Numbered from the stretch's first letter, positions 6,081 through 55,123 are shown. The stretch is DNA of 64,000 bases from an uncultured Planctomycetia bacterium (GCA_964373805.1 CAYJWF010000002.1:13861-77860); one strand, 5' to 3'. Numbers and translations are program-made. Notes: generated by a model not told the origin, from the letters alone.

Positions 6081-7946
6081 TCAAGGCGCAACCTGCAATT
6101 CGTAGAGGCGACGATAGACGGAAGAGGCCTCCATCAGCTCCTGGTGACGTCCGCTTCTCGTGGCCCGGCCTTGGTCCAGCACGACGATCCGATCGACGTT
6201 TCGAATGGTCGAGAGACGGTGTGAGATGATGAAAACGGTCCGCCCCCGCATCAATCGATCCAAGGCCTCTTGCACCAGAGCCTCCGATTCCGAATCCAAC
6301 TGGGATGTCGCCTCATCGAGAATCAGGATCGGCGGATCCTTGAGCAGCGCCCGGGCAATGGCAATCCGTTGACGTTCCCCGCCTGATAAACGGGCGCCTA
6401 ATTCCCCTACGGCGGTGTCGTAGCCTTGGGGGAGACGTCGGATAAAACCGTCCGCGTTGGCTGCCTGGGCGGCTCGAACGACTTCTTCCAAGCTGGCCGT
6501 CGGCTTTCCAAAAGCGATGTTGTTCCGGATCGTGTCGTGGAACAGAAACGGCTCTTGGGTCACCAGACCGATTTGGTTCCGAAGAGAAAGTAGGGTGACC
6601 TTCCGAAGGTCCAGGCCATCGATGGAGACGCGGCCGCGGGCCGGATCGTAGAAACGAGGGAGGAGGTTCACCAACGTCGTCTTCCCCGATCCACTCGATC
6701 CCGCAATGGCCACCACCTCCCCCCTGCGGACGGTGAGGTCCACCCCTTGAAGCACAAAGGAGCCCCTCGCTGAGGCTCGGGACTTTTCTGGACTGGCCGC
6801 TGGCGCAGTCAGAAACGTAGAGGAAGGAGCCTGGCTGGCAGGCCGGTACTGAAACCAAACCTCTTCAAATCGGATCTCCCCCTTAAAACCTGGAAGGTCA
6901 AAAGCCCCGGGCTCCTCTCGGACAGAGGGTTGAATCTCCAGCGTCTCCACCACCCGTTTGGCCGCGGTCAAGGCCTGTTGGTTGACCGAATGGAGCCGGC
7001 TCAATCGTTTCACCGGCTGGTAGAGGGAGAGGAGGGCCGCCAGGAAGAAAACGATCGTTCCGGGCGAAAGTTGGCCGTTCAGCACCGCCCGGCCTCCCAC
7101 CTCCAGCACGATCAGCCCTCCGGCCATGCTGATCAAGTCGGTGATTCCGGCTAGGGCCTCCCGGCGCTTGACCGTCTTGACGTTGGCCTTGTAATACTGC
7201 TGGTTGATCGCCGCGAAACGGGCCCCCTCCTTCTCCTCAGCGGAAAAGGCCTTGACGACTCGGATCCCCTGCAAGGTCTCGATGAGCCGACTGTTCAAGT
7301 CGGCCATCCGATCCTGCACCTGGAATCCTAACTTCCGCAGGGCCTTGCCGATCCGGACAATCGGATAGCCCAGAGCCGGCAACAACAGAAGCGTCACAAA
7401 AGCCAGCTTCCATTGGATGGAAAAAACGATTCCCAGGAAAACGGCCACCTGGGCCGTCTGGTAAACCAGGTCGGTGATCCCCTCGGTGATCGTGTTCTGC
7501 AGCACCGAAACATCGTACGTGATCCGTGAGACCAATTCCCCGGTCCGCTCACCGCTGAAGAAATCCAGCGACAGCCGATGGTACTGGCGGTAGAGGGCGT
7601 TTCGGACGTCCCTTAAGAACCGGGCCGAGACATCGTTCATCAGGTAGGTCTGGTAGAAGAGAACCAGGTTCTTCAAGAGGAACAGGACCACCATGGCGAT
7701 CGCCAGAAGGTGCAGCCGCTGGGCGGGATCTACCGCTTGGAACCGTTCGATCCACCCCACCACCGGGCCCGGAACCCAAGGGGGAAGCTGGACCGTTCGG
7801 TTTAAAAGGACGATGTCCACCAACGGGACCAGCATCCCGAGTGATACCCCTTTAAAAAGACTGGACACCAGCATGCAGAACGCGGCCACCCCCAACAGGC
7901 CAACGTGGGGTTTAAGAAACGGAAGTAATTTGGTGTAAATCTTCAC
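6081..7946 (-). CDS. ABC transporter permease/ATP-binding protein, MsbA-like lipid exporter, carrying an in-frame ~20-aa repeat-element insertion
   Basis: Six-TM N-terminal domain plus NBD with Walker A GSSGSGKTT, LSGGERQR signature, Walker B ILILDEATS; extra segment ASQAPSSTFLTAPAASPEKSRASARGS between the YRP motif and the VLQGVDL strand. Confidence 0.85.
   Translation of the reverse strand: MKIYTKLLPFLKPHVGLLGVAAFCMLVSSLFKGVSLGMLVPLVDIVLLNRTVQLPPWVPGPVVGWIERFQAVDPAQRLHLLAIAMVVLFLLKNLVLFYQTYLMNDVSARFLRDVRNALYRQYHRLSLDFFSGERTGELVSRITYDVSVLQNTITEGITDLVYQTAQVAVFLGIVFSIQWKLAFVTLLLLPALGYPIVRIGKALRKLGFQVQDRMADLNSRLIETLQGIRVVKAFSAEEKEGARFAAINQQYYKANVKTVKRREALAGITDLISMAGGLIVLEVGGRAVLNGQLSPGTIVFFLAALLSLYQPVKRLSRLHSVNQQALTAAKRVVETLEIQPSVREEPGAFDLPGFKGEIRFEEVWFQYRPASQAPSSTFLTAPAASPEKSRASARGSFVLQGVDLTVRRGEVVAIAGSSGSGKTTLVNLLPRFYDPARGRVSIDGLDLRKVTLLSLRNQIGLVTQEPFLFHDTIRNNIAFGKPTASLEEVVRAAQAANADGFIRRLPQGYDTAVGELGARLSGGERQRIAIARALLKDPPILILDEATSQLDSESEALVQEALDRLMRGRTVFIISHRLSTIRNVDRIVVLDQGRATRSGRHQELMEASSVYRRLYELQVAP
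6759..6817 (-). repeat. Family-1 ~58-bp repeat element, copy inside msbA-like CDS (in-frame)
   Basis: Reverse complement CGTTTCTGACTGCGCCAGCGGCCAGTCCAGAAAAGTCCCGAGCCTCAGCGAGGGGCTCC matches copies at 15504, 49480, 50754, 55066. Confidence 0.75.
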
Positions 7947-15483: not shown

Positions 15484-15503
15484 AAAAAGGCAGCCTCCTA
15501 TAA

Positions 15504-15561
15504 GTTTTTGGCTGCGCCAGCAAACAGTCCAGAAAAGTCCCGAGCGGAGCGAGGGGCCTCC
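15504..15561 (+). repeat. Family-1 ~58-bp repeat element, intergenic copy (glnA-glnK spacer)
   Basis: GTTTTTGGCTGCGCCAGCAAACAGTCCAGAAAAGTCCCGAGCGGAGCGAGGGGCCTCC. Confidence 0.75.
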
Positions 15562-23045: not shown

Positions 23046-26000
23046 CTATCCCAATCCGTCCGGGGTGGGATCGGCGCCGGGATTCGGATACGGCGGGACC
23101 GGCGGTGGGCCGCCTTTGAATAGGTGGCTCACCAAACGGAGAGCATCCGTGACATCGATCCATCCGTTATCATCGACATCGCAGGGATCTAAGGAAGGGA
23201 CCTTCTGCCCCCGGTACAGATAAAGCAGGATCGTCACCACATCGGAGATGTCCACCCGACCATCCCCATTGGCATCGCCGCGGATAAACGACGGTTGGGC
23301 AGTCACTGTAACCGTTACTTCTTCGGTATCGCTGAAGTCGCTCGGATCCATGACCCGGAAGAAGAAGGTGTTGGTGCCCACCTGGTCTGCCCCCGGCATC
23401 CATCGGAGAATTTTCGTCAACGTACCGGGCTCGGAACGGACCGTTTCCAAGCTTGCCCCTCTAGGTAGTGGGGAAGGACGTGTCGCCAACACCAATGGAT
23501 CTCCATCCGGATCGGTGGCGGAAATGGGGAATTGGAGCGTCTCCCCAACACGAGCCGTTCTAGAACCGATCGGCTCTAGAACGGGTGAACGACTAGAAGG
23601 CCCGAACTCAGACACGTAGACCTGTCCCGTCAAAGTCATCCGGCTACTCACACCTATCCAGGCCACTCGATTACCGGAAAGGGAAGGCGCTGCATTAATC
23701 TCAAACAACGAAGAGATAACCCGGTGCGTCTCCCCTGTCGTCAAATCCTGGAGGAACGTAAGAGGAGGGATTCGGAATTGACCCCAAAAATCTTCCCAGA
23801 CCACCTGATTCCCTGCAACATCCGGACGGATCTGGGTAGCCGGGTGAGAGGTAAGCTGCCGTTCCCTCCCAGTTCGCAAGTCGTAGAGAAAAAGATCAGC
23901 GGGATCAGGATCAAGCGCATCCTGTTCCCGGTGATCCTCGTAGATGATCCAGTCACCCCAGATCACTGGTCTAACCTGGTCAGACGGATGGTCGGTAATC
24001 CGACGTTCCGTATCGGTAGACAGATCGTAGAGGTAAACGTCGACGTTTCCGCCTTCCGCATGAGAATAAACGATTCGGTCGCCGGACACCCCAACCTGAG
24101 GCCGCGGGTTTGCGAAGCCTGGATCCTCAAAGACAGGTTTCTGCAGACGCTCCCTGAACGTGGTTAAATCGTAGACCTCTAGAATGTGATCGACTGTCAC
24201 ATAAACGAGCCAATGACCAGACATAACAGGAGGCGAATCAAAGGGTAGATTCCCTGCGATTCCTCCCTGATTCACGATGCGCTCCTGCTTGGTGTTGAGG
24301 TTGAATAGATGAATCCTGCTTTGCTGGCCTAACCAAACAATCCAATCTCGCCAGATGGTTGGAGGCGATAACCAAGTGAGATCGGAGGAGATTGACCGCT
24401 TTGTGTCGGTAGGTAGGTCATAGAGATAAAGATGGTTCGAGGTGGGGTCTCTATCCCCTGTGGTTTCTTCCCCCCAAACGATCCGGTCTCCTGAGATCGA
24501 AGGCCCCCACTTCTGTTGGGGGCCGTCCGTAAGCCGTCTGGGGGTAACCCATTCCAAGTAGTACTGCGCTACCTCTTGGAACCGTTGTCCACTTGATGTC
24601 GTAACTGAAAGGAGAACCAAGCTAGGGCCATCCGGTAGATCTCCGATCAGCCAATTTCCCAACACCCCATCCACCACGGGGGTAAACACCGGGCCCCCCA
24701 TCGATCGCCACGGTCCTACGGGGATATCGGTCTGATAGAGCAACTCATACTGCTGAAACCCGGGTCCTGCCGCTGTTCCGGTAACCATTACGGAGCGATC
24801 CCGTCGGCTGAGGATCGCCTTATCTTGCGGGCTGGTGAGGTATACCTGTGGGACCGAATCGATCGTCAGGGCCCGAGCAGCGTTAACGCGTCCAAATCCG
24901 GTCTCCCAATCAAAGCCTGGGGTCCCTACATCATCCGCAGAAATCTGCAATACCCGTCGAACCTCTTCATTGGAAAACTCGGGATGCCTGGACAAGACCA
25001 ACGCGCACACACCGGCCACATGGGGAGCCGCCATGCTGGTCCCTCGAGCCCTGTAATAGGATCCCCCTACCACCATCCTGCCCGCAAAGGCTGGACCACA
25101 ACTTTCCCGATAAATATCGGTTCCCATAGCGCGGAGGGACAGAATCGATGGGGTCACTTCCGAACAACCACCTCCTGACTCACCCCCCGGAGCTGCTACA
25201 TCGATCTCTGCTCCTAGGTTAGAGAAACTGCTCCTCTGATCCAAGTGGTCCAGGGATGCCACCGAGATGACCTCGGATGCGTTCTGGGGACTGAAGGCAG
25301 CTACATCGTCCCGACTATTTCCACCCGCAAATACCAATACCAAGCCGTTGGCGTAGGCCAGACGTATAGCTTCCATAACGAGCGGATTCTCTGGGCACCG
25401 ACCCATACATCCCCAACTGTTGTTGATCACATCCGCTACCCCGTGGTTCACGGGGTAGCGGATACCCTGTGCCAGAACACTGGAAGTGGAGATGCCACGA
25501 TCATCTAGTACCTTAACCGGCATAACCTTTGCCCGGGGCGCCACCCCAACGACCCCGATCCCATTGTTAGCTACTGCAGCAATCGTACCGGCTACATGGG
25601 TCCCGTGTCCATTAAGGTCCATGGGATCCTTATCCCCGTAAATCACATCCCAACCAAACATGTGATCACCAATCTCATTCCATTCCACCTGCCTGTTGCC
25701 ATTAAGATCTACATCGTCCAGATCAACGACTCCATCCCCATTGCGATCCGGAACGATCCCAGGATCCACCCAGACGTTCTTCCAGATGTCCGGATGGTTA
25801 TAGTCCAAGCCGGTATCGACGACAGCCACCACGATCCCTTCCCCTTGGGAAATCTTCCAAGCTTCGTCGGCTTTGATCTTCTTTAATCCCCACAGATCCC
25901 CGTACTCTTGGCCCCAGGCCCCGGTTGACCAGACCCCATCTTGATCTGGATCGACATACGTATCGTTGGGAAGGGTATCCGGGAAGGCTTGGATCTTCAT

Positions 26001-27880: not shown

Positions 27881-27919
27881 TCCGGCGTGGGATCGGCGCC
27901 GGGATTCGGATACGGCGGG
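27881..27919 (-). repeat. Orphan 3' fragment of a dockerin-type gene (…PPYPNPGADPTPDNLN*) duplicating the S8 protease 3' end
   Basis: 38/39 nt identity to 23059..23097; open only ~17 codons (TGA immediately upstream). Confidence 0.7.
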
Positions 27920-27924
27920 GCTGG

Positions 27925-27950
27925 GGGTCAGACCCCGAGGGGTCTGACCC
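27925..27950 (-). terminator. GC-rich hairpin GGGTCAGACC-CCGAGG-GGTCTGACCC downstream of response-regulator gene
   Basis: 10-bp perfect stem; T-run only on the plus-strand side, so terminator function for the minus-strand gene is uncertain. Confidence 0.3.
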
Positions 27951-28653: not shown

Positions 28654-30363
28654 TTAAAGGGATTTCTCCGTGTACCGGTTGGTGATCGGCATCCGCCGAT
28701 CCTTGCCAAAAGCCCTAGGGGTTATTTTAATCCCAATCGGGGCCTGCCGGCGCTTATATTCGTTTAAGTCGATCATTCGAAGGACACGGTCTGTCTCACG
28801 AGGAGGGCTTTTAAGCCTCCGTCGGATCTCCGAGGCAGTTTGATTCTCCTCAACGTAGGCCTTGACGATGGAATCCAGCCGATCGTACGGAGGCAACGTA
28901 TCCTGATCCCGTTGGTTCGGCCTCAACTCCGCGGTGGGAGGCCGCCGGAAAACCGATTCCGGGATCACCGGCTTGCCAAAGATTCGGTTGGCGGTCCGAC
29001 CCAAACGATAGACCCAGGTCTTAGGCAGATCTTTAATCACCGCGAATCCCCCCACCATGTCGCCGTAAAGGGTGCAGTAACCGGTGGAAAGTTCCGACTT
29101 GTTCCCGGTGGCCAAGGCCAGCCAATGGAACTTGTTGGCGAGGGCCATCAAGAGAGTTCCCCGAATCCGGGCTTGGAGATTTTCCTCGGTGACGTCGACC
29201 GGTCGATCCCTAAAGACCGGTTTCAAGGTAGCGAGAACCGTTTGGAACATCCGCTCGATGGGAATTTCCAAAAACGGGATTCCGAGATTCAACGCCACGG
29301 CCTTGGCATCGGCTTGGGTCTCATTGGAAGAGTAACGGGAAGGCATGGAGACCCCGGTGACCGCTTCCTTTCCTAACGCGGCGACGGCGACGGCCGCGGT
29401 CAGGGCCGAGTCGATTCCTCCGCTTAGGCCGATCACCACGTGGGAGAAACCGTTTTTCCGAACGTAATCCCGGGTGCCTAAGACCAGGGCTTGAAAGACC
29501 TCTGCATCGGAATCCAGAACCGTCAAAACGGTGTCTGACACCTCGCGGCTGCGAGAAGCGGTGCCAGACACTTTGAGAGGAACTTCCACGAGAAACAAGC
29601 CCTCTTGAAATTGGGGAGCCCGAAATACGATCCTCCCCGAAGGGCTGGCGACCAGGCTTCCCCCATCGAAAACCAACTCATCCTGGCCACCGACTAAGTT
29701 GACGTAAACCACCCAACTCTTACACCGACCGGCCCAATCCTGGATAAGCCGCTCCCGTTCCCGGAGCTTGCCGGCATGGTACGGCGAGGCCGACAGGTTG
29801 ACCAGGATCTGAGCCCCCGCCTTCGCCTCGGCCAAGGGAGGCCCGGTTTTAACCCAGATATCCTCACAGATCGACACTCCAATAAGAACGGTACCAGGTA
29901 CATTTTTCGCGAAACTTTTATAAAGTTGAGCCGTTTTTGTACCTGGTACCATTTCTACGACAAGTGGATCGCCACCCGGGGTGAAGTACCGCTTCTCATC
30001 GAACACCCCGTAGTTGGGGAGCATCATCTTGTGGTAACCCGCCGCCCTGCGGCCGTTGGACAAGACGGCGGCCGCGTTGTACAGCGAGCCCTTCTGGTCT
30101 CTATCGACAAAACCAACGAGCGCCGTGATCCCTCGGGTTAAGGGGACCAACTTTTTCAGTGAGGCCAAATTCCCTCGGATAAAGGCCGGGTTAAACAAAA
30201 GGTCCTCCGGCGGATAGCCGGTCAAGGCCAATTCTGGAAAGACCACGAGATCCGCCGCCTGTTGTTTCGCTTGGGCGAGAAAACAAGCGATTTTCGTGCG
30301 GTTCCCATTTAAGTCCCCGACGGTCACGTTGATCTGGGCCAAGGCAATCCTCAACTTCCTCAT
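28654..30363 (-). CDS. nadE: Glutamine-dependent NAD+ synthetase (N-terminal nitrilase/CN-hydrolase domain + NadE domain)
   Basis: 569 aa; LRIALAQINVTVGDLNGN (CN hydrolase), SGGIDSAL P-loop of NAD synthetase. Confidence 0.9.
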   Translation of the reverse strand: MRKLRIALAQINVTVGDLNGNRTKIACFLAQAKQQAADLVVFPELALTGYPPEDLLFNPAFIRGNLASLKKLVPLTRGITALVGFVDRDQKGSLYNAAAVLSNGRRAAGYHKMMLPNYGVFDEKRYFTPGGDPLVVEMVPGTKTAQLYKSFAKNVPGTVLIGVSICEDIWVKTGPPLAEAKAGAQILVNLSASPYHAGKLRERERLIQDWAGRCKSWVVYVNLVGGQDELVFDGGSLVASPSGRIVFRAPQFQEGLFLVEVPLKVSGTASRSREVSDTVLTVLDSDAEVFQALVLGTRDYVRKNGFSHVVIGLSGGIDSALTAAVAVAALGKEAVTGVSMPSRYSSNETQADAKAVALNLGIPFLEIPIERMFQTVLATLKPVFRDRPVDVTEENLQARIRGTLLMALANKFHWLALATGNKSELSTGYCTLYGDMVGGFAVIKDLPKTWVYRLGRTANRIFGKPVIPESVFRRPPTAELRPNQRDQDTLPPYDRLDSIVKAYVEENQTASEIRRRLKSPPRETDRVLRMIDLNEYKRRQAPIGIKITPRAFGKDRRMPITNRYTEKSL

Positions 30364-31163
30364 AGCGCGACGATGGACATCCCTTTCCGGTCGGCCTCAG
30401 CGACGAGTTGAGGAAGCTGAAACAAGAGTGTCCGCTTCGCCTCCACCCCTAACACAGACACCCGGGCTTCCTCCATGGCTTGGATTGTTTCTAAGCCGAC
30501 CACCGGGATATCGAACCGCATATCGTGCTCCGGGCCGCAGGCCTTGACCACCACACATCCTACACCGGCCACCTCGCCTGCCCTTCGGATAGAGGCATCG
30601 GTCCCCTCCATCCCCTCGACGGCGACCACCGCTTTGCGTCGAACCACGAGAGTCTGACCGATCCCCAGTCTGGAAAGTTGTCTAGCCAACGGGAGCCCAA
30701 AGGCAAGATCGGCCTGTTCTTCTTGGGTAGGAACTCTTTGGGTCAAGGGTCCCGGACCAGGGATCCAATCCTTCAAGAACGTCCCAGAATCCAACACCCG
30801 GAACCCCTGGGCCTCTAAGTAATGGACCGCCATCTTCATCGCTGAAGTCCCGGATCGGTCCGGCAACAGCTTAAGCAACTGCTGGACCACTGCCTCAAAT
30901 CGACCCTCCCCTTGAAGGAGTCGCTCCGGCTTGATCTGACCGGCGAGGATCACCTCCTGAACCCCTTCCTTCTTCAATAGATCAGGCACCTGCCCGATCT
31001 GGGAGAAAGTCAACCAATGCATCCGATCCACTTCTTGCTCCAAGGAAGAGGAGGTTTCTTCCTTGAAACCGATCGCGACGACCTCGTAGCCTTGGGCCTT
31101 GGCCGCCCTGGCCACGTAAATGGGAAAGGTTCGGTTTCCTGCGATAATCCCAAGTTTAGGCAT
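30360..31163 (-). CDS. lpxI: UDP-2,3-diacylglucosamine diphosphatase LpxI (DUF1009)
   Basis: 267 aa; N-terminal LGIIAGNRTFPIYVARAA and C-terminal VVAVEGMEGTDASIRRAG...VVVKACGPEHDMRFDIPVVG match the LpxI family; located in lipid A cluster. Confidence 0.65.
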   Translation of the reverse strand: MPKLGIIAGNRTFPIYVARAAKAQGYEVVAIGFKEETSSSLEQEVDRMHWLTFSQIGQVPDLLKKEGVQEVILAGQIKPERLLQGEGRFEAVVQQLLKLLPDRSGTSAMKMAVHYLEAQGFRVLDSGTFLKDWIPGPGPLTQRVPTQEEQADLAFGLPLARQLSRLGIGQTLVVRRKAVVAVEGMEGTDASIRRAGEVAGVGCVVVKACGPEHDMRFDIPVVGLETIQAMEEARVSVLGVEAKRTLLFQLPQLVAEADRKGMSIVAL

Positions 31164-31198
31164 GGGAGTTGGCTAGAACCAAATGGGGTAAGACCCCA

Positions 31199-31471
31199 TC
31201 ATCCCTAGTTACTTAGCCTTCCTTCGGAAAGGGGGGTGTGTTGGGGCGTGCTGAGGAAACGGACGATCCCCCCATGGGAATTTCCCCCCAACGAGACCGA
31301 TTGCTTTTGCCTGCCTGCGCCGAGCAACGCGAGGCAGGCAGGCCGGATGGGGGAGTACGGAGGGGGAAACCAGGCAGTGGTTTCCCCCTCCGAGAGGCTG
31401 GGCGACTAACGATGGTGGCCACTCCACCGAAGCCGGGAGGCACACGATAACCGATGGATTCATCCCTAGTT
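31199..31471. repeat. Structured intergenic element (~260 bp) flanked by 12-bp direct repeats TCATCCCTAGTT (31199..31210 and 31460..31471), containing GC-rich hairpins; MITE-like or structured RNA
   Basis: Direct repeats seen; internal palindromes GCCTGCCTGC(N15)GCAGGCAGGC at 31309..31343 and GGAAACCA-GGCAG-TGGTTTCC at 31365..31385; sits between lpxC-fabZ stop and lpxI start. Confidence 0.5.
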
Positions 31472-31480
31472 GCCCAGCCT

Positions 31481-32830
31481 CTAAAGCTTCCCGTCCCCTT
31501 CCAACAAGGCAAACATGAGATCCCCCTCCGCCACGACCTTCTCCTCCACCAGGGCCCGGGTCCGCATCTGGCCGGTTTTGGAGCGAAGCTTCAGCACCTC
31601 CGCCTCCAGGCGAAGGGTGTCCCCGGGTAAGACGGTCCGCCGAAACTTGACGTTATCCATCGCCACAAAATAGGCGTACTTGCCCAGATTCTCCGGCTTA
31701 TTCAACAAGAGGATGCCCGACACCTGGGCGAGGGCCTCGATGATCATCACCCCCGGCATCACCGGACGCTTGGGGAAATGACCGGCAAAGAACGGCTCGT
31801 TGATGGTCACGTTCTTCAACCCCACCGCCCGCTGATCGGGAACCAACTCGACGATCCGATCCACCAAAAGAAACGGATAGCGGTGGGGGAGAATCCGCTC
31901 AATGGCGAAGATGTCGAGGGCGGTCGCCTCCGGTTCGACGAACTGCGCCTGGATCCCCCCTTCCCTGCCGCGCTCCAACGTTTGCCGGAGCTTCTGAACG
32001 AGCCGTAGGTTCAACGCATGGCCGGAACGGATGGCGATCACATGCGCTTGAAGGGGCCGGCCCAGAAGGTACAGATCCCCAATGAGATCGAGGACCTTGT
32101 GTCGGACGAACTCATCTGGAAAACGCAAGCGGTTGTTGATCACCCGCCCCTCGGCATCGACCACCACGGTGTTCTCGTAATTGGCTCCCCGGCCCAACCC
32201 GATGCGACGCAGCGCCTCCACCTCCTGGGCAAGACAAAAGGTTCGGGAAGGGGCCAGCTCCGTTTCCAAGAATGGAGAGGTCAAGTTCGCCGAAAAAAAC
32301 TGGGCCTTTAAACCGGGGATGGGATAGCTCAACGTGTAGGAAACGCGAAAGGCTTCGTCGGGCAACACCGCTACGATGGCCGAGTCCTCCTCGATCCAAA
32401 CCGGCTCCCGCACCGGGATCACCTGACGCGGAGCCTCCTGTTCCTGGAAACCAGCCTGCCGAAGGAGCTCCACAAAGGGATAGGCCGATCCATCGAGTCC
32501 CGGGACCTCTTCACCATTTAACTCCACGAGAAGGTTATCCACCCCGGAAGCGTAACAGCCGGCCATGAGGTGTTCGATGGTATGAACCTCAACGGCCCCC
32601 TGGCCGATCGAGGTCCGCCGAGGCCGACGAGAGGCGTCGAGGATGTTGGTGATCGAGGCGGCCACAGGCTGGGAACCGGCCAAGTCGGTCCGAATAAAAG
32701 CGATCCCATTGTCGGACGGAGCTGGCTTAAACTCCACTTGGGAACGCCGCCCGGAATGAAGGCCCACCCCTTCTACCCGGGCCGGCCGACGGATGGTGCG
32801 CTGTCGACTAAGGGGGGCCTTGTCTTCCAA
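31481..32830 (-). CDS. lpxC-fabZ: Bifunctional UDP-3-O-acyl-GlcNAc deacetylase / 3-hydroxyacyl-ACP dehydratase (LpxC-FabZ fusion)
   Basis: N-terminal LpxC (TIRRPARVEGVGLHSGRRSQVEFKPA...HTIEHLMAG) and C-terminal FabZ hotdog (ILPHRYPFLLVDRIVEL...EPFFAGHFP..PVMPGVMIIEALAQ). Confidence 0.85.
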   Translation of the reverse strand: MEDKAPLSRQRTIRRPARVEGVGLHSGRRSQVEFKPAPSDNGIAFIRTDLAGSQPVAASITNILDASRRPRRTSIGQGAVEVHTIEHLMAGCYASGVDNLLVELNGEEVPGLDGSAYPFVELLRQAGFQEQEAPRQVIPVREPVWIEEDSAIVAVLPDEAFRVSYTLSYPIPGLKAQFFSANLTSPFLETELAPSRTFCLAQEVEALRRIGLGRGANYENTVVVDAEGRVINNRLRFPDEFVRHKVLDLIGDLYLLGRPLQAHVIAIRSGHALNLRLVQKLRQTLERGREGGIQAQFVEPEATALDIFAIERILPHRYPFLLVDRIVELVPDQRAVGLKNVTINEPFFAGHFPKRPVMPGVMIIEALAQVSGILLLNKPENLGKYAYFVAMDNVKFRRTVLPGDTLRLEAEVLKLRSKTGQMRTRALVEEKVVAEGDLMFALLEGDGKL

Positions 32831-36920: not shown

Positions 36921-39900
36921 TTACACGCTAACCTTGGCCAATTCCTTCAGGTGGTCGGCGAGTTTGTTGAGACGGATGCCGTAGAAGGACTCGACCTCAG
37001 ACTGTGAGAGGCCCTCTTCCAATCCGGCCAGATTGCCGAGGATTCGCTTGAGCACAAAAGGGAGGTCGCCCATTGGAAGATGGGTAACCGTAATCGGAAC
37101 TCCGCGCGATTGGAGGAGTCGATTCAGAGCCTCAGCCCCATCCTCGGTGTCCAAATATCCCATCCGTCCAGCACCGAGGAGAGCCAGCGAACCGGCAGCT
37201 TCTTCCAGCCCCCCTGCTGCCAAAAGGACGCTGGGGTGATCCGCGTACGAAGGTGCCTCCGGGCCAATGACAACGAGGAACGGACCCAGCGCCGGCACCT
37301 GAGCCTTCAGGCGATCCAGGAATCCGATGAGTTCTGGCCCATCGGTTTTTAGCCCACTTGGCCCAATCCCGATCAAGGGCTGGGTTTTAAGTTCCGTCGC
37401 CAGGACCCGAGCGATCCGGACCATATCCTCCTCCAATCCAGCACTTGGTTTCCACTCATCGGGAGAAAAGGTCTGAATGCCGTCTTTGACCTTGACCAGT
37501 ACGGTGTCAGACTCTGGGTCATAGTGAATGGTCGTGGGTTCATTGAGCGCTTTACTCGGCAACTCCGCGGGAGGCTCGGTCGCCATATCATAGACGCGGA
37601 GCTTCTCCCGGTCATCGGTCACAAACAGGAGCTTTCGATCAGAAACATAGGCCATATCGCCAGTAAACCTGTATTCTCCAAAAGGCTCCCCAATCTGCTC
37701 TCCCGTCGTCGCATCAAAGCGGAGTAAGCGACAAATCGAAAGCTGACCAGGAAGATCAGGACCGACGGGGACAAGAAGGGTGTTATCATCCGCATCATAG
37801 ACAACCACGCTAGGGTTCAATGTGGAAATCGTTGGAGCTATCTCCTGTCCGGTTTCTGGGTCAAAGGTCCGTATCTGACTAACGAAGGCCACGAAGAGCC
37901 TCCGGTTTCGTAAATCCTGAGCGACGTCATTCACAGCCTCCAGAGAACGTACCGGAATGTTCTTGATCAGTTCTCCGGTCTCTCCTTGAAATAGCCGAAT
38001 CTCCCGCGTATTCTTAAATATTCCGGAAACTCCCTCCACCAGGATATCCGTATCCGGATCGTAATCTGCCTTGCGTAGCGTCACAACCTGCCGAACGGTC
38101 TCGGAAGGTTCCATTCTCTTTGGCTTGAACCATGGAGCAGCTTCTCCATTGGTCAGCTTCTCCAAAGCCTCCAATTGCGTCCTCACTTGGCTCAAAATCG
38201 GCTCCTCCAGATGCTGACTCGGTTCAACTCCCAGACCGATCAGCCGACCGGTCAGCTCCGCTAGTTTGGTGTCGTCCGACCCCAACCAGTCGGCCGGATT
38301 ACCACCGTAGAGGCTCATGGCATGCACCGCCCGCTGCGGCTTGGAACCCCTATCGACAAATTCCCGACGACCCCACCGAATCAGGGCTGCTTTAGAGATC
38401 GGTGGCCTTCCAGAATAAGGAGAAAGCGACAGAGAAGAGGCGTTACTGATTCTCTCCATAGCCTCCTTGAAAGCAGGGCCCGCGTGCCTTAAGGCTCCAT
38501 GGACATGTGGCCAATCAAAGTGATGTGCCAAAAGAATTAAGTTCTCTACCGCCAAGATATCCCGGCGCAACAGCCTGGGAGTCGACCGGAGCCACTGGGT
38601 AGTCTCGTTAAGTTTCTGATCGGCATACTCCACATTCGTAGGACCGTATCGAGGTCTTTCCAAGATTACACGCAGTTCATCCGACAGCTCTTCCAGGCCG
38701 GTCTTAGGCTCCGTTGGTGGATCGGGTGGGACTTGGCCTCTGAGTTGCGCGATCTCTTCATCCACGAGGCGCTCCACATCCGCTGGAGCTGCGCCTGGCT
38801 GTACCCCACGCTGCACCAAAGCCTCCACGTACCGGTCTATGGGGCGAAGCTGGGCGTTGGTATCCAGCTCTTCCATGCGGACCATCTCCACATTGGAAAA
38901 ACGCCCTTTAAGCAACCGCTCCGTCTGAAAGGCATGCATTCGGCCTCGGGGGACGACCATGACTGTACTTTCAGGTTCAGGATCTTCTTCCAGATACATC
39001 AAGGCCTTCAAGGCTGAGATCAGTTCCAGGCCGATCTGAACATCGTCCCTCTGGTAAGCGCTGGCTAGTTTTTCCTGTGCAGCATGAAGCAGATCGGCCT
39101 TCACCTGGGATTCAGCGGAAGGGTCCTTCACCTGTTGGAGAGCCAGATTCTCCCGCTCACGGGCCAAGAGAAATCTCCACCAGGATTCAAAGGAGGGTTC
39201 CTCCCGTAACGGGACGACGTTGATCCCTCTCTTCTGCTTCTCCACCAGAATCTCGAACAACCGGCGGTTCCAATCGGATGGAATAGGCGGATTAAACGAT
39301 GTCGACCCGGCCCGGATCTGGCTCACCCAGCCATCCATGAACTCGTTGACTCCTTCCATCGCCTGATGAAACGCCGGACGAACGATTTGGTCCACTCCCT
39401 GGGGATCCCTCCTAGCCGCCGCGATCAGATCTCCTGGTTGAAGGCCGGCGATCTGAAGCAACTCTGTCAGGAACGGTCCACCCACTTCCAACGGGACGAC
39501 CAGATGTTTGACGCCTGGTCGGGCACTCAAGAAACCATCCAACCGCTTTTTGAACTCCTCCAGCACCTTCATGGACAAGGGATCATCTCCATGCAGCAGG
39601 AAGCCGGCCAGAACCGGAATCTGAGAGATCCTTGTGGTACCAAGACCCGTTTGGGCAATCAACCACACTGGCCTAAGCTGTGGGAAACTCTGAACAAGCT
39701 GCCGAAAAAGTCCAGCCTCTAAAGTAGTGGGATCTTCGTGACGGTGGTGAGCTACCTCCCCTGCAACCAAATCGACCAAACGGGATAGGCTAAGAGGCGA
39801 ATCGGCAGAAATGTAAAAGTTAACCCGATTATCTTCAGGATCACCCGGCTTGGTGTACCTTACGACAGACAGCGCGTTCTTTCCATGCGAATCGCGATGG

Positions 39901-42900
39901 GTGACGACAGAACCTCTCGGATCGGTCACGGGAATAGGGTCTTGGAGGATGGCCCTAAATCTGTAAGACTCCCCATACCCTGTATTTGGATCCTCCGTAG
40001 ATAGATACTGTGAGCTGAGCCAATTTCGGAGAACAATCTCAATATCTTTAGGAGTCAAACCAGCCCAGTCATCTCCCAAAGTGGCAGGAGCTCCCCTGGT
40101 TTCCTCCTCCGGTGGGATCGGTTTCTCTAGCTCAGCCTTAATCTTGGCCAGCGCTTCCTCGGTTGGGAGTATATCGGCTGGGATCCCCAGACCGATCAGC
40201 CGACCGGTCAGCTCCGCCAGTTTCGTGTCATCCGACCCCAACCAGTCGGCCGGCTTGCCGCCGTAGAGGCGCATCGCCTGCACCGCCCGCTGGGGCTTGG
40301 TCCCTTTTCCAAACTCTTGACGACCAGAACGGATGAGCTCCGTCGAAGTGGGTTCCTCCTCCAGACCGGAGGCGGGGCCGGCGCTTAACCAGGTCAGGAG
40401 ACGGTCCATGCGGGGATCGCTGTAAAGATCCCCTGGCATGGCGATGGGATTGCTGTTGGAATCAAGCCGTTGCCATGCCAGAGCTCTCTGGAAGGTACTC
40501 CGCAATCGGTCGTCCGGCTGACTCAAGAAGGCATCCACCACCTCCAGGAACTGGGCCCAGCTCTGGCTCGTGGCCAACCGGTAGAGGTGATCCTTGAGCT
40601 GCTCGGTGGACAACCGTTGGGGAAGGTCAGGAAAGGAACCGGTGAGAACCAGCCCCTTTTGCGTGTCGGTTGGAGCGGGAAGGTGCCGCCCCAGGGCGGC
40701 TGCCTGAATGGTTTTAGCTTGGGAGTCGGTCTCTCTGGAAAAGGCCTCTAAGAGAGCAGGCACCAGTTGAGGCGATAAGGAGAGGTCCGAGCCTAAGCCC
40801 AGCTTGGCCGCCTCTCTCCGAGCAGCCACGTCTGGATCCGTTATCTTGGCGATGAGGGTCCTGAGGGCTGCTTCCGGAGAAGGGTTTACCTGGATATCGA
40901 GTTTGGCATCTTGAAGGGCCTTCCGGATCGTCTCGGGTTCCCCTTCCTTCAGGGGAACGTAGGTTCGCAGGATCAAATCGATCAGAGGAACGGATTGATC
41001 GGGCCTAAGGCTTAAATTCCCGACAGCCGCCTCAGTCAGGCGCATGTCGGGCGGCTCATACAGCTCCCCCTGTCGGAATAAGGGACGCAACACGTTGGCG
41101 GCCTTGACCACACTCCGGATGGCTTCCTCAGGAATCGTGGGATGGTCCTCGCGGAGGATCGCCACCTCATCGTTCTCCTCCGGATAACCGTAGCGATGGA
41201 TCGCCCAGCGATCTACAAATTCAGCGGAAAGCTCGTATACCTCATACGGCGGCCGAGGGGGATTCATGTTCAGACCCACGACCGCCCCCTCCGGTAAAAC
41301 AAACTCCTCGCCGTTGTCCATGAGGACTCTGCGCTCAGCCAGGAAGTCATTGAAGGCGGCCAACGTTCCTGGCAGGGCTTTGTTCCCTTCGTCCCAAACA
41401 ACGATGGGCGGACCTTCTCTCGCCACTCTGTCCGGCCTGAGGTAGGCCAGTGGTAAGGAATCTCTCCAGAGGGTCTTTCCCTTCTCGTACCATCGGATCA
41501 CCAGCATGTCCCGGACCTTAAAGTCCTTGCTCATTCCGAGGACGATGAGGTTCCGTTTTAAGGTCCTGGCCAAAATCTCCATAAAATAGTTCTTACCGGT
41601 TCCGGCATCTCCAATGTTCAGGAGGTGTTCTCCTAACGCCACCGACTTGAGTAGATCTTCCAGTTTCCTGAGGTTCCCGGCACTCTTCCGGAACAGCTTG
41701 GTGGGAATTAACCCTCCGGTTCCAGTGGCCAGGGAAATCCGGACATCCGCCGGCCAGTGAGGATACCGGATGAAACTCGAGGAATCGGTCTGAGGGTCCG
41801 ATGGAACCACGATCGGCTCCACAGCAAGAGACCTGGCGGCTGGCCAAGGCTGACCCGCAGGCCAGTGGGTCGGTTTAAAGACCCGCTCCAGGAGGTCCTG
41901 GACGTGTTGTTCCATCCCATCCCCATGGACCGTATCGTCCACCCAGTAGCTTTTGAAGAAGATATCCGGTATTCGGGCCAGATCCTCCGGAAAGGTATCG
42001 AGATGCCGAACCATCCGGACTAAGGCTCGGGTGGTCACCACAAAAGGAGATTCTGCCTGCCGGGCATCTGCCCGAAGCAACCGGGCCGCCTCCAGGAGGC
42101 CATCGATGATTCCATCGGAGACCACCCAATCTCCATCGGTGGTCTTGCGCCTCCTCTGCTGGCGAAGGATCTGCCGCTCGTGTTCTTGAAAGAGCGCAAA
42201 TTCCAGGTTGTCCTTCCCATCGGCCAGTTTCTCCGATGGATAATCCAGTCGGAGCTTGCCGAAACGGGTGAGAAACTCACCCGGAAGTTGCCTCCCCTTA
42301 TACTGCATGAGGGAAACAATATCCCCTTCCGGCGGGTTGATCGCTGCGACGAATCGGCTGTTGGGATGGAACCTGGCCACCCGGTCATGGAGAACTTTGA
42401 CTCGGCTTTGCAAGGGATCGTTCAGTTCCGCCAGAACGGAGCCTGGTGCCCGGTTGACTTCCGATAGAATCACTAAATCCCCCAATTCCCCTCCTTCCAC
42501 GATATCCGAGGTGGACCATTCCATTTCCTCTCCTCGATGGGAGAGGCGCTCGGTGACGTTGGGCTTACGCATGTTCTCGTTGAAGGTCACCACCCGAACC
42601 CGGGTTTGGTGAACGTAATTCAGCAGTTGGGAGCGGACCGTTGCCAACGTGGAATCGGTCATCTGGGTCGCCTTCCCTTGCAGCCACCCCCGATAGATCT
42701 CCCAGATGTATCGGGCGTAGAGGCTCTTGCCGATCCCGGCCTGCCCGATCAACAGGAGGTTGTTCCGAGTCGGATGCCGCAGGACATCCCACATCTGTTT
42801 CAGCTTCAGCACCGTCCAGTCAGAGAGTTCTATCTTCAGAGTATTCGGCGGATCGATCCGGATCCCATCGATCTCAAACCAAGCCTGGTCCCCTTGCCTG

Positions 42901-49320: not shown

Positions 49321-49956
49321 CTAAACCCTCACCTTCTGGTTAAAAAGATTCATGGCAGCGGTCAAACCTTTCTGGACCCAAACCTCACAGGCCAACCCGG
49401 CGGCCCGTAAACCTTCCTCCAAGGGCTTCTTCTCCTCCAGACGGAAACGCCCCAAAACAAAAGGGGTCAACTCCCTTTTGCTTTTGGCTGCGCCAGCGAC
49501 CAGTCCAGAAAAGTCCCGACCATCAGCGAGGGGCTCCTCCAGGCCTGGATGGGCCCCAATCCCCACTCGGAGCCGCGCCACGTGATCGGAGTCTAACGCC
49601 TCTAAGATGGAACTTAACCCCCGATGCCCGCCGGCCGATCCCTGGCCCCGCAGTCGAATGGCGCCTAAGGGGAGCCGAACGTCGTCGCAAACAACGAGCC
49701 AACCGGACCGATCCAACTTCCATCGACGGACGAGACACCCTACCGCCTCCCCTGAGGCGTTCATCCAGGCGCGCGGCTGAACCAACCGGACCGAATGACC
49801 GTCGACAACCCCTTCCCCTACCCGACAGCGGCAGAGGGATTTTTTTAACGGGATCGACCATCGCTCCGCCAGTCGACCAACCACCGAAAACCCAACGTTG
49901 TGTCTCGTGCCGGCGTACGTCCTTCCAGGGTTGCCCAGCCCGATGATCACCTTCAC
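49321..49956 (-). CDS. pth: Peptidyl-tRNA hydrolase carrying an in-frame 20-aa repeat-element insertion
   Basis: MKVIIGLGNPG...TRHNVGF...GGHRGLSSIL...RLRVGIGAHPG; between GIGAHPG and FVLGRF lie 27 residues instead of the ~7 in E. coli Pth, encoded by repeat copy 49480..49540. Confidence 0.85.
   Translation of the reverse strand: MKVIIGLGNPGRTYAGTRHNVGFSVVGRLAERWSIPLKKSLCRCRVGEGVVDGHSVRLVQPRAWMNASGEAVGCLVRRWKLDRSGWLVVCDDVRLPLGAIRLRGQGSAGGHRGLSSILEALDSDHVARLRVGIGAHPGLEEPLADGRDFSGLVAGAAKSKRELTPFVLGRFRLEEKKPLEEGLRAAGLACEVWVQKGLTAAMNLFNQKVRV
49480..49540 (+). repeat. Family-1 ~58-bp repeat element, copy inside pth CDS (in-frame, translated as EEPLADGRDFSGLVAGAAKS)
   Basis: GCTTTTGGCTGCGCCAGCGACCAGTCCAGAAAAGTCCCGACCATCAGCGAGGGGCTCCTCC. 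Confidence 0.75.
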
Positions 49957-50729: not shown

Positions 50730-51802
50730 CAACGCCTCCGAAGCTTCTCCTTTGTTTTTGGCTGCGCCAGCGGCCTGTCTAGGAAAGTGCCGCGCATCAG
50801 CGCGGCCTTCTCCATGGGTTCCTTGGCCAAAGGCGGGGCTTCCTCCCAATGGTCGTGAAAGAGAACGCTGAGCGACTCCTCCTGGTGGATCCGCCGGATC
50901 GCCTCCGCGAACAAGCCGGCCACGGAGAGAACCTTGACCTTCGGCATCCCTCGCCCGGCAGGGATGGGAATCGTATCGGTGACCACCAACTCCTTTAAAG
51001 GGGAGGCGGTCAACCGTTCCTTGGCCGGACCGGAAAGAACCGCGTGGGTCACGGCCGCGAACACCTCCTTCGCTCCAGCCTCCTTCAAGGCCCGCACCGC
51101 TTCCACGAGAGATCCGGCAGTGGAGACGAGGTCGTCCACGATGAGGGCGTTCTTGCCGTTGACCTCGCCCATGATGTCCATCACCTCGGCCTCCTCGTGA
51201 CTGATCCGACGTTTATCCACCATCGCCAAGGCGGACTGAAGGCGCTTGGCGTAGGCCCGGGCCATCTTAATGCCCCCCACATCCGGGGAGACCACCACCA
51301 GATCCGGAATCGGCCGCTCGGTCGTGAAGTATTCCACGAAGGTGTTCACCGCGAACAGATGATCCAAGGGAATGTCGAAGAATCCTTGGATTTGGCCCGC
51401 GTGCAGGTCCATCGTCAACACCCGATCGGCCCCGGCCACGGTAATGAGATTGGCCACCAGCTTCGCCGTGATCGGCACGCGCGGTTGGTCCTTGCGATCC
51501 TGGCGGGCGTAGCCATAGTAAGGAAGAACCGCCGTGATGCGCCGAGCCGAGGCCCGTTTCAACGCGTCGAGAAGGATGAGCAGCTCCATGAGATGGTCGT
51601 TCACCGGGGGTGCCGTCGGTTGGATCACAAAAACGTCCAGCCCCCGCACGTTCTGTTGGATCTTGACCCGAATCTCCCCCTCGCTAAAGCGCCCCACCAG
51701 CGCCTGACCCAGGGGAACCCCCAGCGCCTCGGCGGCCCTCGCCGCAAAAGCGGGGTGGGCGTTTCCACAAAAGAGAACCGGCGGATCCGTCTTAACTCCC
51801 AT
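50729..51802 (-). CDS. prs: Ribose-phosphate pyrophosphokinase with ~35-aa C-terminal extension read through a repeat element
   Basis: Prs motifs (VVSPDVGGIKMARAYAKRL, DLHAGQIQGFF); normal end near ...SLSVLFHD; tail MEKAALMRGTFLDRPLAQPKTKEKLRRR is encoded by repeat copy 50754..50813. Confidence 0.9.
   Translation of the reverse strand: MGVKTDPPVLFCGNAHPAFAARAAEALGVPLGQALVGRFSEGEIRVKIQQNVRGLDVFVIQPTAPPVNDHLMELLILLDALKRASARRITAVLPYYGYARQDRKDQPRVPITAKLVANLITVAGADRVLTMDLHAGQIQGFFDIPLDHLFAVNTFVEYFTTERPIPDLVVVSPDVGGIKMARAYAKRLQSALAMVDKRRISHEEAEVMDIMGEVNGKNALIVDDLVSTAGSLVEAVRALKEAGAKEVFAAVTHAVLSGPAKERLTASPLKELVVTDTIPIPAGRGMPKVKVLSVAGLFAEAIRRIHQEESLSVLFHDHWEEAPPLAKEPMEKAALMRGTFLDRPLAQPKTKEKLRRR
50754..50813 (+). 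repeat. Family-1 ~58-bp repeat element, copy at 3' end of prs (in-frame)
   Basis: GTTTTTGGCTGCGCCAGCGGCCTGTCTAGGAAAGTGCCGCGCATCAGCGCGGCCTTCTCC; contains hairpin GCCGCGC-ATCA-GCGCGGC. Confidence 0.75.
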
Positions 51803-54333: not shown

Positions 54334-54513
54334 TTCCTCTTCGTTTCTCGATCACCTGAAGGTGATCGGTTCCAGGAAAATCCCGCCCTCGGGGGATCCC
54401 CCTAGGTTCTCGTCCAGGCTAAGCCAACTCTTCCTCTCCCGTGAAACTCCTATTCGTCGTTTCACGGGACTTTCCTGGGCCGGCCCCTACGGGGCCTCAA
54501 ATCTTAGAGGACG

Positions 54514-55065: not shown

Positions 55066-55123
55066 GTTTCTGGCCGCGCCAGTGGCCGTCCAGGAAAGTC
55101 CCGCGCATCAGCGCGGGGCTTCC
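55066..55123 (+). repeat. Family-1 ~58-bp repeat element, intergenic copy filling the ispE-spoVG spacer
   Basis: GTTTCTGGCCGCGCCAGTGGCCGTCCAGGAAAGTCCCGCGCATCAGCGCGGGGCTTCC; hairpin CCCGCGC-ATCA-GCGCGGG. Confidence 0.75.

Follow-up and report, generated by a model that had tools for sequence, protein, structure and literature searches.

The lpxC-fabZ/lpxI spacer

The DNA studied here, which we call the window, is a stretch of 64,000 nucleotides deposited as part of an uncultured Planctomycetia bacterium (GCA_964373805.1, CAYJWF010000002.1:13861-77860). On its minus strand the genes run in the order bamA, skp, lpxD, lpxC-fabZ, lpxI and nadE, and a spacer of 317 nt (31164-31480) separates lpxC-fabZ, a fused gene for a bifunctional LpxC/FabZ (31481-32830, minus strand), from lpxI (30360-31163, minus strand). 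The first-pass annotation had placed a structured element between exactly these two genes, and the flanking genes are as it stated.

The RNA sense of the element is the minus strand of the window, and all features below are described on that strand, 5' to 3'. The stop codon of lpxC-fabZ, TAG, lies at 31481-31483, and a closing stem, P1, begins at the next base. Its 5' strand doubles as the upstream copy of a 21-nt direct repeat (AGGCUGGGCAACUAGGGAUGA in RNA sense, 31460-31480); the stem encloses a loop domain of ~46 nt (31415-31459) that contains the motif GUGUGCCUCCCGGCUU at 31430-31445, and in its 3' strand (31393-31414) the outer 14 nt are complementary at 13 of 14 positions to the post-stop sequence of lpxC-fabZ. 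Then come hairpin H2 (CGGAGGGGGAAACCA-loop-UGGUUUCCCCCUCCG, 31358-31392), the hallmark of the family described below, with basal pairs that covary among copies; a conserved C-rich linker, CUCCCCCAUCC (31345-31355), between H2 and H3; a GC stem of 10 bp at the variable H3 position (31309-31343), an insertion particular to this copy; hairpin H4 (31240-31292), with the outer stem GUUGGGG/CCCCAAC and an inserted sub-hairpin; and a C-rich tail, CCCCCCUUUCCGAAGGA (31220-31236), with an SD-like AGGA at its end, closing the family core on its 3' side. The tail is followed by the downstream copy of the direct repeat (AGGCUAAGUAACUAGGGAUGA, 31199-31219), differing from the upstream copy by three transitions, and by a part of the spacer that we regard as ancestral (31164-31198), a hairpin GGGGUCUUACCCC and then AUUUGGUU, which aligns with the 75-nt spacer of a related locus, L006. 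The AUG of lpxI is at 31161-31163.

Much of this had been glimpsed in the first reading. The 12-mer TCATCCCTAGTT reported at both ends of the element occurs exactly twice in the 64-kb window (31199-31210 and 31460-31471), against 0.24 matches expected by chance when up to one mismatch is allowed, and the repeat extends to 21 nt (31199-31219 and 31460-31480) with 18/21 identity. The 10-bp GC stem is present, GCCTGCCTGC at 31309-31318 pairing with GCAGGCAGGC at 31334-31343. The second hairpin also exists and is longer than had been claimed, a perfect stem of 15 bp (31358-31372/31378-31392) around a loop of 5 nt. A third inverted repeat had not been listed: 31393-31414 pairs with 31461-31482 over 22 nt at 86% complementarity, and the upstream copy of the direct repeat thus serves as one arm of a stem, the 5' arm of P1. 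The open reading frames predicted inside the element, which had been dismissed as artefacts of GC content, indeed look like such, as none of the four has a Pfam match even at E <= 1.

The spacer folds far more stably than its composition predicts. Its minus strand (31164-31480) reaches -146.9 kcal/mol compared with -121.7 +/- 5.1 in shuffles (z = -4.98), the plus strand has z = -4.28, and on either strand the gain over dinucleotide shuffles is ~25 kcal/mol. Close to lpxI, the minus strand also has an upstream reading frame of nine codons, AUGAUGGGGUCUUACCCCAUUUGGUUCUAG (31173-31202), that starts inside the downstream direct-repeat copy, runs over the ancestral part of the spacer and ends 9 nt before the lpxI AUG, in frame with lpxI. 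The lpxI gene of the window has no obvious Shine-Dalgarno sequence, and loci L005, L006 and L007 differ in this.

An interspersed family in Omnitrophota

An exact pattern of the H2 hairpin, a 15-bp stem with a free loop, was scanned against species-representative genomes and hit five loci in two MAGs, four of the five in one of them. BLAST and a reading of these loci revealed shared sequence well beyond the hairpin, together with two further, diverged copies, and a looser pattern brought up 44 loci in groundwater and sediment metagenomes. From 31 non-redundant copies we built an alignment, A2, and a covariance model, R1, which recovers 43 full-length or near-full-length copies at 80-140 bits. 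The search for other copies that the first-pass annotation had proposed as a check has therefore turned up ~45 relatives of the element in Omnitrophota MAGs and in groundwater and sediment metagenomes, with at least five copies in CAYJUA01 and at least two in CAYFHV01. The single-copy element with a protein-coding signal that had been named as the contrary outcome is not what we see: the element is multicopy and its four reading frames lack Pfam matches. Within the 64-kb window itself, R1 has exactly one match (31217-31396, minus strand, 103 bits) and a second family copy was not found; viral contigs and plasmid and phage collections gave no family match.

The window holds other repeats. One of them, a dispersed repeat of ~60 nt built around the core GGCTGCGCCAGC..GTCCAGAAAAGTCCCG, has no relation to the element and occurs in both orientations at 6758-6832, 15488-15555, 49472-49538, 50744-50805, 54465-54501 and 55067-55116; it probably corresponds to another of the MITE families that the first-pass annotation had in view. 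Direct repeats are also seen at 38230-38344 and 40186-40300 (115 nt, 91% identity) and at 23059-23106 and 27881-27928 (48 nt, 92% identity).

The element region has a GC content of 0.62-0.63, and in such sequence repeats and hairpins could conceivably be the products of chance. We give this idea practically no credence: the 12-mer statistics, the z-scores against shuffles and the 80-140-bit matches in dozens of unrelated loci exclude it.

Known RNA families offer little. The covariance scan of the window, another check proposed at the outset, left the element unmatched and returned only two tRNAs at or above the Rfam gathering thresholds; extended to 20 loci of the family with Rfam 15, the scan at gathering thresholds yielded only tRNAs and one cobalamin riboswitch (L015). 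At permissive E-values, the best sub-threshold matches of the window element and other copies were miRNA-like hairpin noise and BjrC80, an sRNA (RF02354). A copy at L029 aligns over the whole of that model with a similar order of G/C-rich hairpins and scores 24.7 bits, against a gathering score of 80, and the window copy reaches 13.6 bits; in 12 further copies, the only match was at L030, on the opposite strand and with E = 2.6. We dismissed membership in BjrC80 as hairpin noise, far below the gathering score and not reproduced. Models of group I and group II introns had no match at E <= 10, and the element is intergenic rather than intragenic. Literature searches for repeats or structured RNAs of Omnitrophota brought up nothing relevant.

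The genomes carrying the family are labelled 'Planctomycetia', and exact look-up of proteins yielded no host names, yet by homology of ribosomal protein L3 their closest relatives with a name all belong to Omnitrophica/Omnitrophota, as do the named relatives of the window LpxI. Judged by these protein relationships, the hosts of the family are Candidatus Omnitrophota. We consider it likely that the family has gone uncatalogued until now and that the element in the lpx operon is one of its copies and no lipid-A-specific regulator.

Traces of the family are also visible in assemblies. Logan contigs of the same strain from independent samples end inside the element, at 31246 and 31374, as a repeat spanning ~31217-31403 would explain if k = 31, which we take to be the Logan setting. 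In each of the two MAGs, a run of ten Ns lies inside a family copy (L009 867-876 and L011 ~2135-2144); we interpret these runs as gaps left in scaffolding, in keeping with the repeat having interrupted the assembly.

A second subfamily is found at L015, L016, L017, L028, L040 and L041 (e.g., L040 5849-5967). Its copies carry the H2 loop UUUUGAAAAAG, differ in the 3' half and score 31-47 bits with R1, and some of their hosts are AT-richer. At L015, L040 and L041 they lie directly 3' of a typical intrinsic terminator hairpin, and at L015 the cobalamin riboswitch (89-289, 110 bits) is immediately 5' of the subfamily-2 copy.

Structure and covariation of the family

Across the family, the parts follow one another from 5' to 3' as P1, an optional loop domain, H2, the linker, H3, H4 and the tail. 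The repeated core is ~125 nt long and comprises H2, the C-rich linker, the variable H3, H4 and the C-rich tail ending in AGGAA; with the copy-specific closing stem, total lengths are 190-300 nt. H2 has the consensus NNGA-GGGGGAAACC-loop-GGUUUCCCCC-UCNN, H4 reads, for instance, UUGCGGGGGAG-UUUCCCA-CUCCCCCGCAA, and the tail has the form ..CCCCCUCUCC-RRAGGAA. The domain enclosed by P1 is of three kinds: short; ~62 nt with the same motif as the window copy; and ~80-100 nt with CUGACGUUCAACCGUCGCG. The motif of the second kind is common to L009, L011, L022, L023, L035, L038, L045, L048 and L052.

In the window copy, which is a mosaic, two insertions are private: the GC stem at H3 and the sub-hairpin in H4. 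The latter interrupts the H4 loop, which is UUUCCCA in nearly all other copies, and the part of H4 that includes it is 90% identical to a copy at L009 (3932-4014). The small palindrome that makes up the GC stem recurs in three places, at 31309-31343 of the window, at L038 1390-1412 and at L048 21-55, and its contexts differ: it sits within H3 in the window and within the H4 loop in another copy, and stands alone at the third locus. We take this as a hint of a second REP-like unit, smaller than the element and inserting into it.

The stems of H2 and H4 are well conserved as stems. In A2, 96.2% of their cells are paired, compared with 45-69% when the partners are slid, and both sides have changed in 57 cells against 14.6 +/- 3.5 in shuffles. 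One-sided changes of the G-U type are almost absent, and the stems are ~98% Watson–Crick. They are, in other words, maintained by paired substitutions almost without G-U intermediates, and the sequences of loop and linker (UUUCCCA and CUCCCCCAUCC) are more conserved than the stems themselves, as might be expected under selection for a function at the RNA level.

Counts of G-U versus A-C mismatches could in principle tell which strand functions, and they bear on the idea of an independent small RNA, possibly read from the plus strand and thus antisense to lpx, that would start with the anti-SD-like UUCCUUCGG and carry several GGAG/GGA motifs. Read on the plus strand, a small number of A-C mismatches, located in H4 and at the foot of H2, would turn into G-U pairs, and where copies are linked to a tRNA gene, that gene runs in the same direction as their plus-like strand. 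Informative pairs are few, however, and the counts are too small to carry the argument, being 3 versus 1 in H4 and 7 G-U versus 6 A-C in P1. As, in addition, neither strand of the window copy has a sigma-70-like promoter or a terminator and the weak BjrC80 match does not recur in other copies, we regard such a small RNA as very unlikely.

Insertion into a once-short spacer

In the related loci the corresponding gap between lpxC and lpxI is mostly short. It measures 12 nt in L007, 50 nt in L061 and 75 nt in L006, L058 and L060, all five without the element, and the LpxI proteins of these relatives are 75-78% identical to that of the window. R1 found nothing at E < 0.1 in L005 and L057-L062 with its filters off, and nothing at E up to 1 in L006 and L007 with the default filters; the element is missing from the lpxC-lpxI spacer in 7/7 related loci (L005, L006, L007, L057, L058, L060 and L061). 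Since the last 35 nt of the window spacer can be aligned with L006, the inserted DNA is that between the two copies of the 21-mer. Going by these alignments, the element is an insertion into a once-short lpxC-fabZ/lpxI spacer.

The two closest relatives, with LpxI identities of 84% and 86%, have other GC-rich and palindrome-rich inserts in the same spacer (L057 337-561, 225 nt; L005 1-187, >187 nt, the contig ending inside the insert). We considered these as family members and rejected them, as they are unrelated to the family and to each other; their presence does indicate that the lpxC-lpxI spacer repeatedly accepts structured inserts. The spacer is not alone in having grown: copies at L009 fill the rpsJ-rplC and rpsL-rpsG junctions, which in relatives measure 0 and 7 nt.

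These comparisons speak most directly to the suggestion, made in the first-pass annotation, of a regulatory RNA or attenuator that splits the lipid A operon, which we took as an attenuator or riboswitch within lpxD-lpxC/fabZ-lpxI. The location inside a lipid A gene cluster and the high degree of structure make the thought a natural one. An element serving lipid A synthesis should nevertheless recur upstream of lpxI, and it does not, being missing at this spacer in all relatives examined; moreover, it has no expression platform, with no terminator-like site in 31164-31480 and no promoter-like site in the window copy, it matches no Rfam family, and its relatives sit beside unrelated genes. The suggestion fails on these counts, and we hold a lipid-A-specific device to be highly improbable.

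The direct repeat and the closing stem

When the 5' strand of P1 is compared with the downstream flank by Smith-Waterman alignment, the window copy scores 27, against a mean of ~11 for the window strand aligned to the flanks of other copies; the ungapped comparison of the direct repeat gives 15 against 5.5 +/- 1.2. Elsewhere, flanking repeats are weak (11/13 at L052, 10/12 at L035 and about 15/19 with a gap at L023), and without the window the permutation test for copy-specific flanking repeats gives a marginal p = 0.04. In this comparison across the family, only the window stands out against cross-copy nulls. With counterparts in other copies this weak, the 21-nt repeat is most simply read, on the evidence of the alignments, as the target-site duplication of this one insertion and not as a hallmark of the family. 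Its two copies differ by the three transitions, all of them at positions at which bases of the upstream copy form Watson–Crick pairs within P1, which fits a history in which pairing in P1 kept the upstream copy intact.

P1 itself consists of 9-22 bp, mostly perfect, and abuts H2, and its sequence differs in nearly every copy, to the point that the stems are unrelated even between copies whose cores are ~95% identical. Elsewhere in the family, one arm or both often take in the final codons of the upstream gene and its stop codon; at L044, both arms fall in conserved C-terminal codons of an ABC permease (..IIEGLTRGSTVG), of which more distant homologues end in ..GLTAGATKG. The copy-specific stem could stem from templated palindrome formation, from target-guided insertion or from selection. 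A bolder reading is that P1 arises anew at each site out of the sequence present there, either by a templated mechanism that couples insertion to the stop-start junction of translationally coupled genes, for which target guidance or a fold-back with template switching would be possibilities, or as part of a new class of intercistronic RNA device that would replace native stop-start overlaps. We offer it tentatively and think it rather unlikely.

Genomic context of the copies

Naive ORF-based gene calling was abandoned as unreliable in GC-rich DNA, and the orientation of neighbouring genes was therefore assessed with a codon-usage model trained on the long ORFs of the window. Among 28 copies, 19 are in the sense orientation to both neighbours, 7 are antisense to both and 2 are mixed; 26 of the 28 lie between co-directional genes. 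The sense copies are placed with some precision. The upstream stop codon is found from -6 to +30 nt of the first base of P1 in 12 of the 14 sense copies measured, exactly at -1 in five of them, the window included, and it reads TGA in 12; in 10/14, no more than 0-10 nt separate the AGGA of the tail from the next start codon. The window copy is among the exceptions, lpxI starting 56 nt beyond the tail and behind the ancestral hairpin, as the insertion landed upstream of that hairpin.

The downstream genes have no common function and include rplC, rpsG, prfA, pstB, recJ, hisH, ispD, folA, gcvH and a gene for a BtuF-like protein. An all-against-all BLASTP of the ORFs around the copies, looking for a recurrent neighbour such as a transposase or RAYT, found only syntenic orthologues, and the family is accordingly considered non-autonomous. 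At one type of site, next to and divergent from a tRNA gene, the copies have been kept across several species, with core identities of ~76-95% and diverged far flanks; this conserved position argues for retention and not only for recent mobility.

Copies with the 5' module of ~100 nt adjoin tRNA genes divergently at L018, L024, L027, L039, L042, L049, L050 and L055. The tRNA genes involved are of at least three kinds, and a conserved linkage joins tRNA, module and core, but the sequence after the tail varies from locus to locus. At L011, two family copies of the same orientation (801-965 and 2077-2197) lie on both sides of prfA, the gene for release factor 1 (357 aa).

The arrangement at gene junctions invites a functional reading, in which the element is a cis-acting RNA module, a general intercistronic device under selection at the RNA level, with mobility being secondary. 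P1, seated on the upstream stop codon, would be opened by terminating ribosomes, the tail would present the next SD, and the structure would set the translational coupling, or the processing and stability, of both cistrons. The precise placement from stop codon to SD and the sense bias of 19:7, with 26/28 copies between co-directional genes, are in line with such a role, against which must be set that roughly one copy in four is antisense to the genes on both sides and that the neighbouring genes share no function. Similarly, an invariant H4 loop and C-rich linkers next to covarying stems recall structured RNAs, yet stems that are ~98% Watson–Crick and have almost no G-U pairs are unusual among RNA families. 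The peripheral domains are modular and closed by P1, a design that would suit an RNA device, but the unrelated P1 stems on near-identical cores are not explained by gradual RNA evolution. Finally, the tRNA-adjacent position is retained across species, and read-through is expected as terminators are lacking, while at the corresponding junctions relatives lack the element. All in all, we find the RNA module possible but unlikely.

Discussion

Our analyses probably have their best explanation in an uncatalogued family of interspersed, modular and hairpin-rich intergenic repeats of Omnitrophota, one copy of which has been inserted between lpxC-fabZ and lpxI. By its features, we infer a DNA repeat that is non-autonomous and either mobile or spreading through recombination, of the REP/BIME, BOX, Correia or MIRU kind. 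Such a repeat accounts better than a dedicated regulator for the multiple copies, the empty sites, the presence in both orientations, the unrelated neighbours, the lack of a mobility gene nearby and the near-perfect palindromes. It counts against the repeat reading that a transposase, terminal inverted repeats and a target duplication common to the whole family were not found.

If the element is such a repeat, the course of events might be as follows. The repeat would insert at a gene junction and occupy the space between the upstream stop codon and the next ribosome-binding site. Having no terminator, it would be transcribed through, so that its presence in an operon would be tolerated, and its tail would supply a Shine-Dalgarno sequence anew for the next gene; the lack of terminator- or promoter-like signals and the SD-like AGGA near the next start codon can explain how copies persist even in essential operons. 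By analogy, the lpx operon would be transcribed through the element, and the hairpins may, in the manner of REP sequences, buffer the upstream mRNA against decay from the 3' end. They would probably also loosen the translational coupling of the two genes, and they may change how stable lpxC-fabZ and lpxI are, and how well they are translated, relative to each other.

Next to nothing has been described of the non-coding repertoire of Omnitrophota, which are uncultured. The family matters in practice, as it breaks assemblies and gives rise to spurious ORFs, and the core operons whose architecture it changes include those for ribosomal proteins, lipid A, pst and sec. Should the arrangement from stop codon to SD be functional, the element would be a natural cassette for placing ~200-300 nt of structured RNA between coupled genes with expression kept, and it would bear on the tolerance of gene junctions to insertions and on REP-like control of the relative output of cistrons. 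Should the closing stems be templated from the target, they would point to a mechanism of palindrome creation or target recognition not described for bacterial repeats.

Comparison with known systems

The family is reminiscent of MITEs in being short, non-coding, multicopy and non-autonomous and, in the window copy, in having a direct repeat. The suggestion in the first-pass annotation of a further MITE family thus holds as far as a dispersed, multicopy family, its insertion relative to related genomes and a direct repeat placed like a target duplication are concerned; there are multiple copies per genome as well as empty sites (lpx, rpsJ-rplC and rpsL-rpsG). It does not hold for the ends. Terminal inverted repeats are missing: if the direct repeat is made the boundary, the element begins with ACTTAGCCTTCC... 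and finishes with ...AACCGATGGAT, which are not inverted repeats, and an imperfect relation, GGAG(A)GGGGG / CCCCC(U)CUCC, exists inside the core only. The core occupies 31217-31396 instead of 31199-31471, the strong direct repeat is found only here, where it is 21 nt long and imperfect, and we found no parent insertion sequence among the ORFs around the copies or in the plasmid, phage and viral collections.

REP/BIME sequences of Enterobacteria and Pseudomonas and Br-REP1/2 of Bradyrhizobium are alike in being interspersed, palindromic, intergenic and present in many copies. They also share with the Omnitrophota family the near-perfect Watson–Crick stems of their palindromes and the transcription within operons, which for the Omnitrophota family is presumed. 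A REP unit, however, is a single palindrome of 20-40 nt and not a three-hairpin core of ~125 nt with P1, and REP copies have been demonstrated in hundreds per genome, compared with tens of loci seen in all for the Omnitrophota family. The functions ascribed to REP include the protection of upstream mRNA from 3' exonucleases and, for a REP less than 15 nt from the stop codon, ribosome stalling (PMC5082802).

The BOX elements of Streptococcus pneumoniae, ERIC and the Correia elements of Neisseria resemble the family in being modular, structured, non-autonomous and intergenic units of 100-300 nt that are co-transcribed with their neighbours and can alter the expression of these. They have no known sequence similarity to the Omnitrophota family. 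Terminal inverted repeats are a feature of Correia and ERIC, as are target duplications of a defined type, TA or short, and neither is seen here; BOX modules are not known to span exactly the distance from stop codon to SD. The mycobacterial interspersed repetitive units (MIRU) offer a further parallel: they reside inside operons, at gene junctions, with stop and start signals that preserve the expression of the flanking genes. MIRU are, however, tandem units of 40-100 bp that encode small coupling ORFs, whereas the Omnitrophota element, likewise at operon gene junctions, is a single, strongly folded and non-coding unit. We therefore file the element among the bacterial interspersed structured intergenic repeats, set apart from the others by a multi-hairpin core of ~125 nt, a closing stem P1 seated on the stop codon and a tail that carries the SD.
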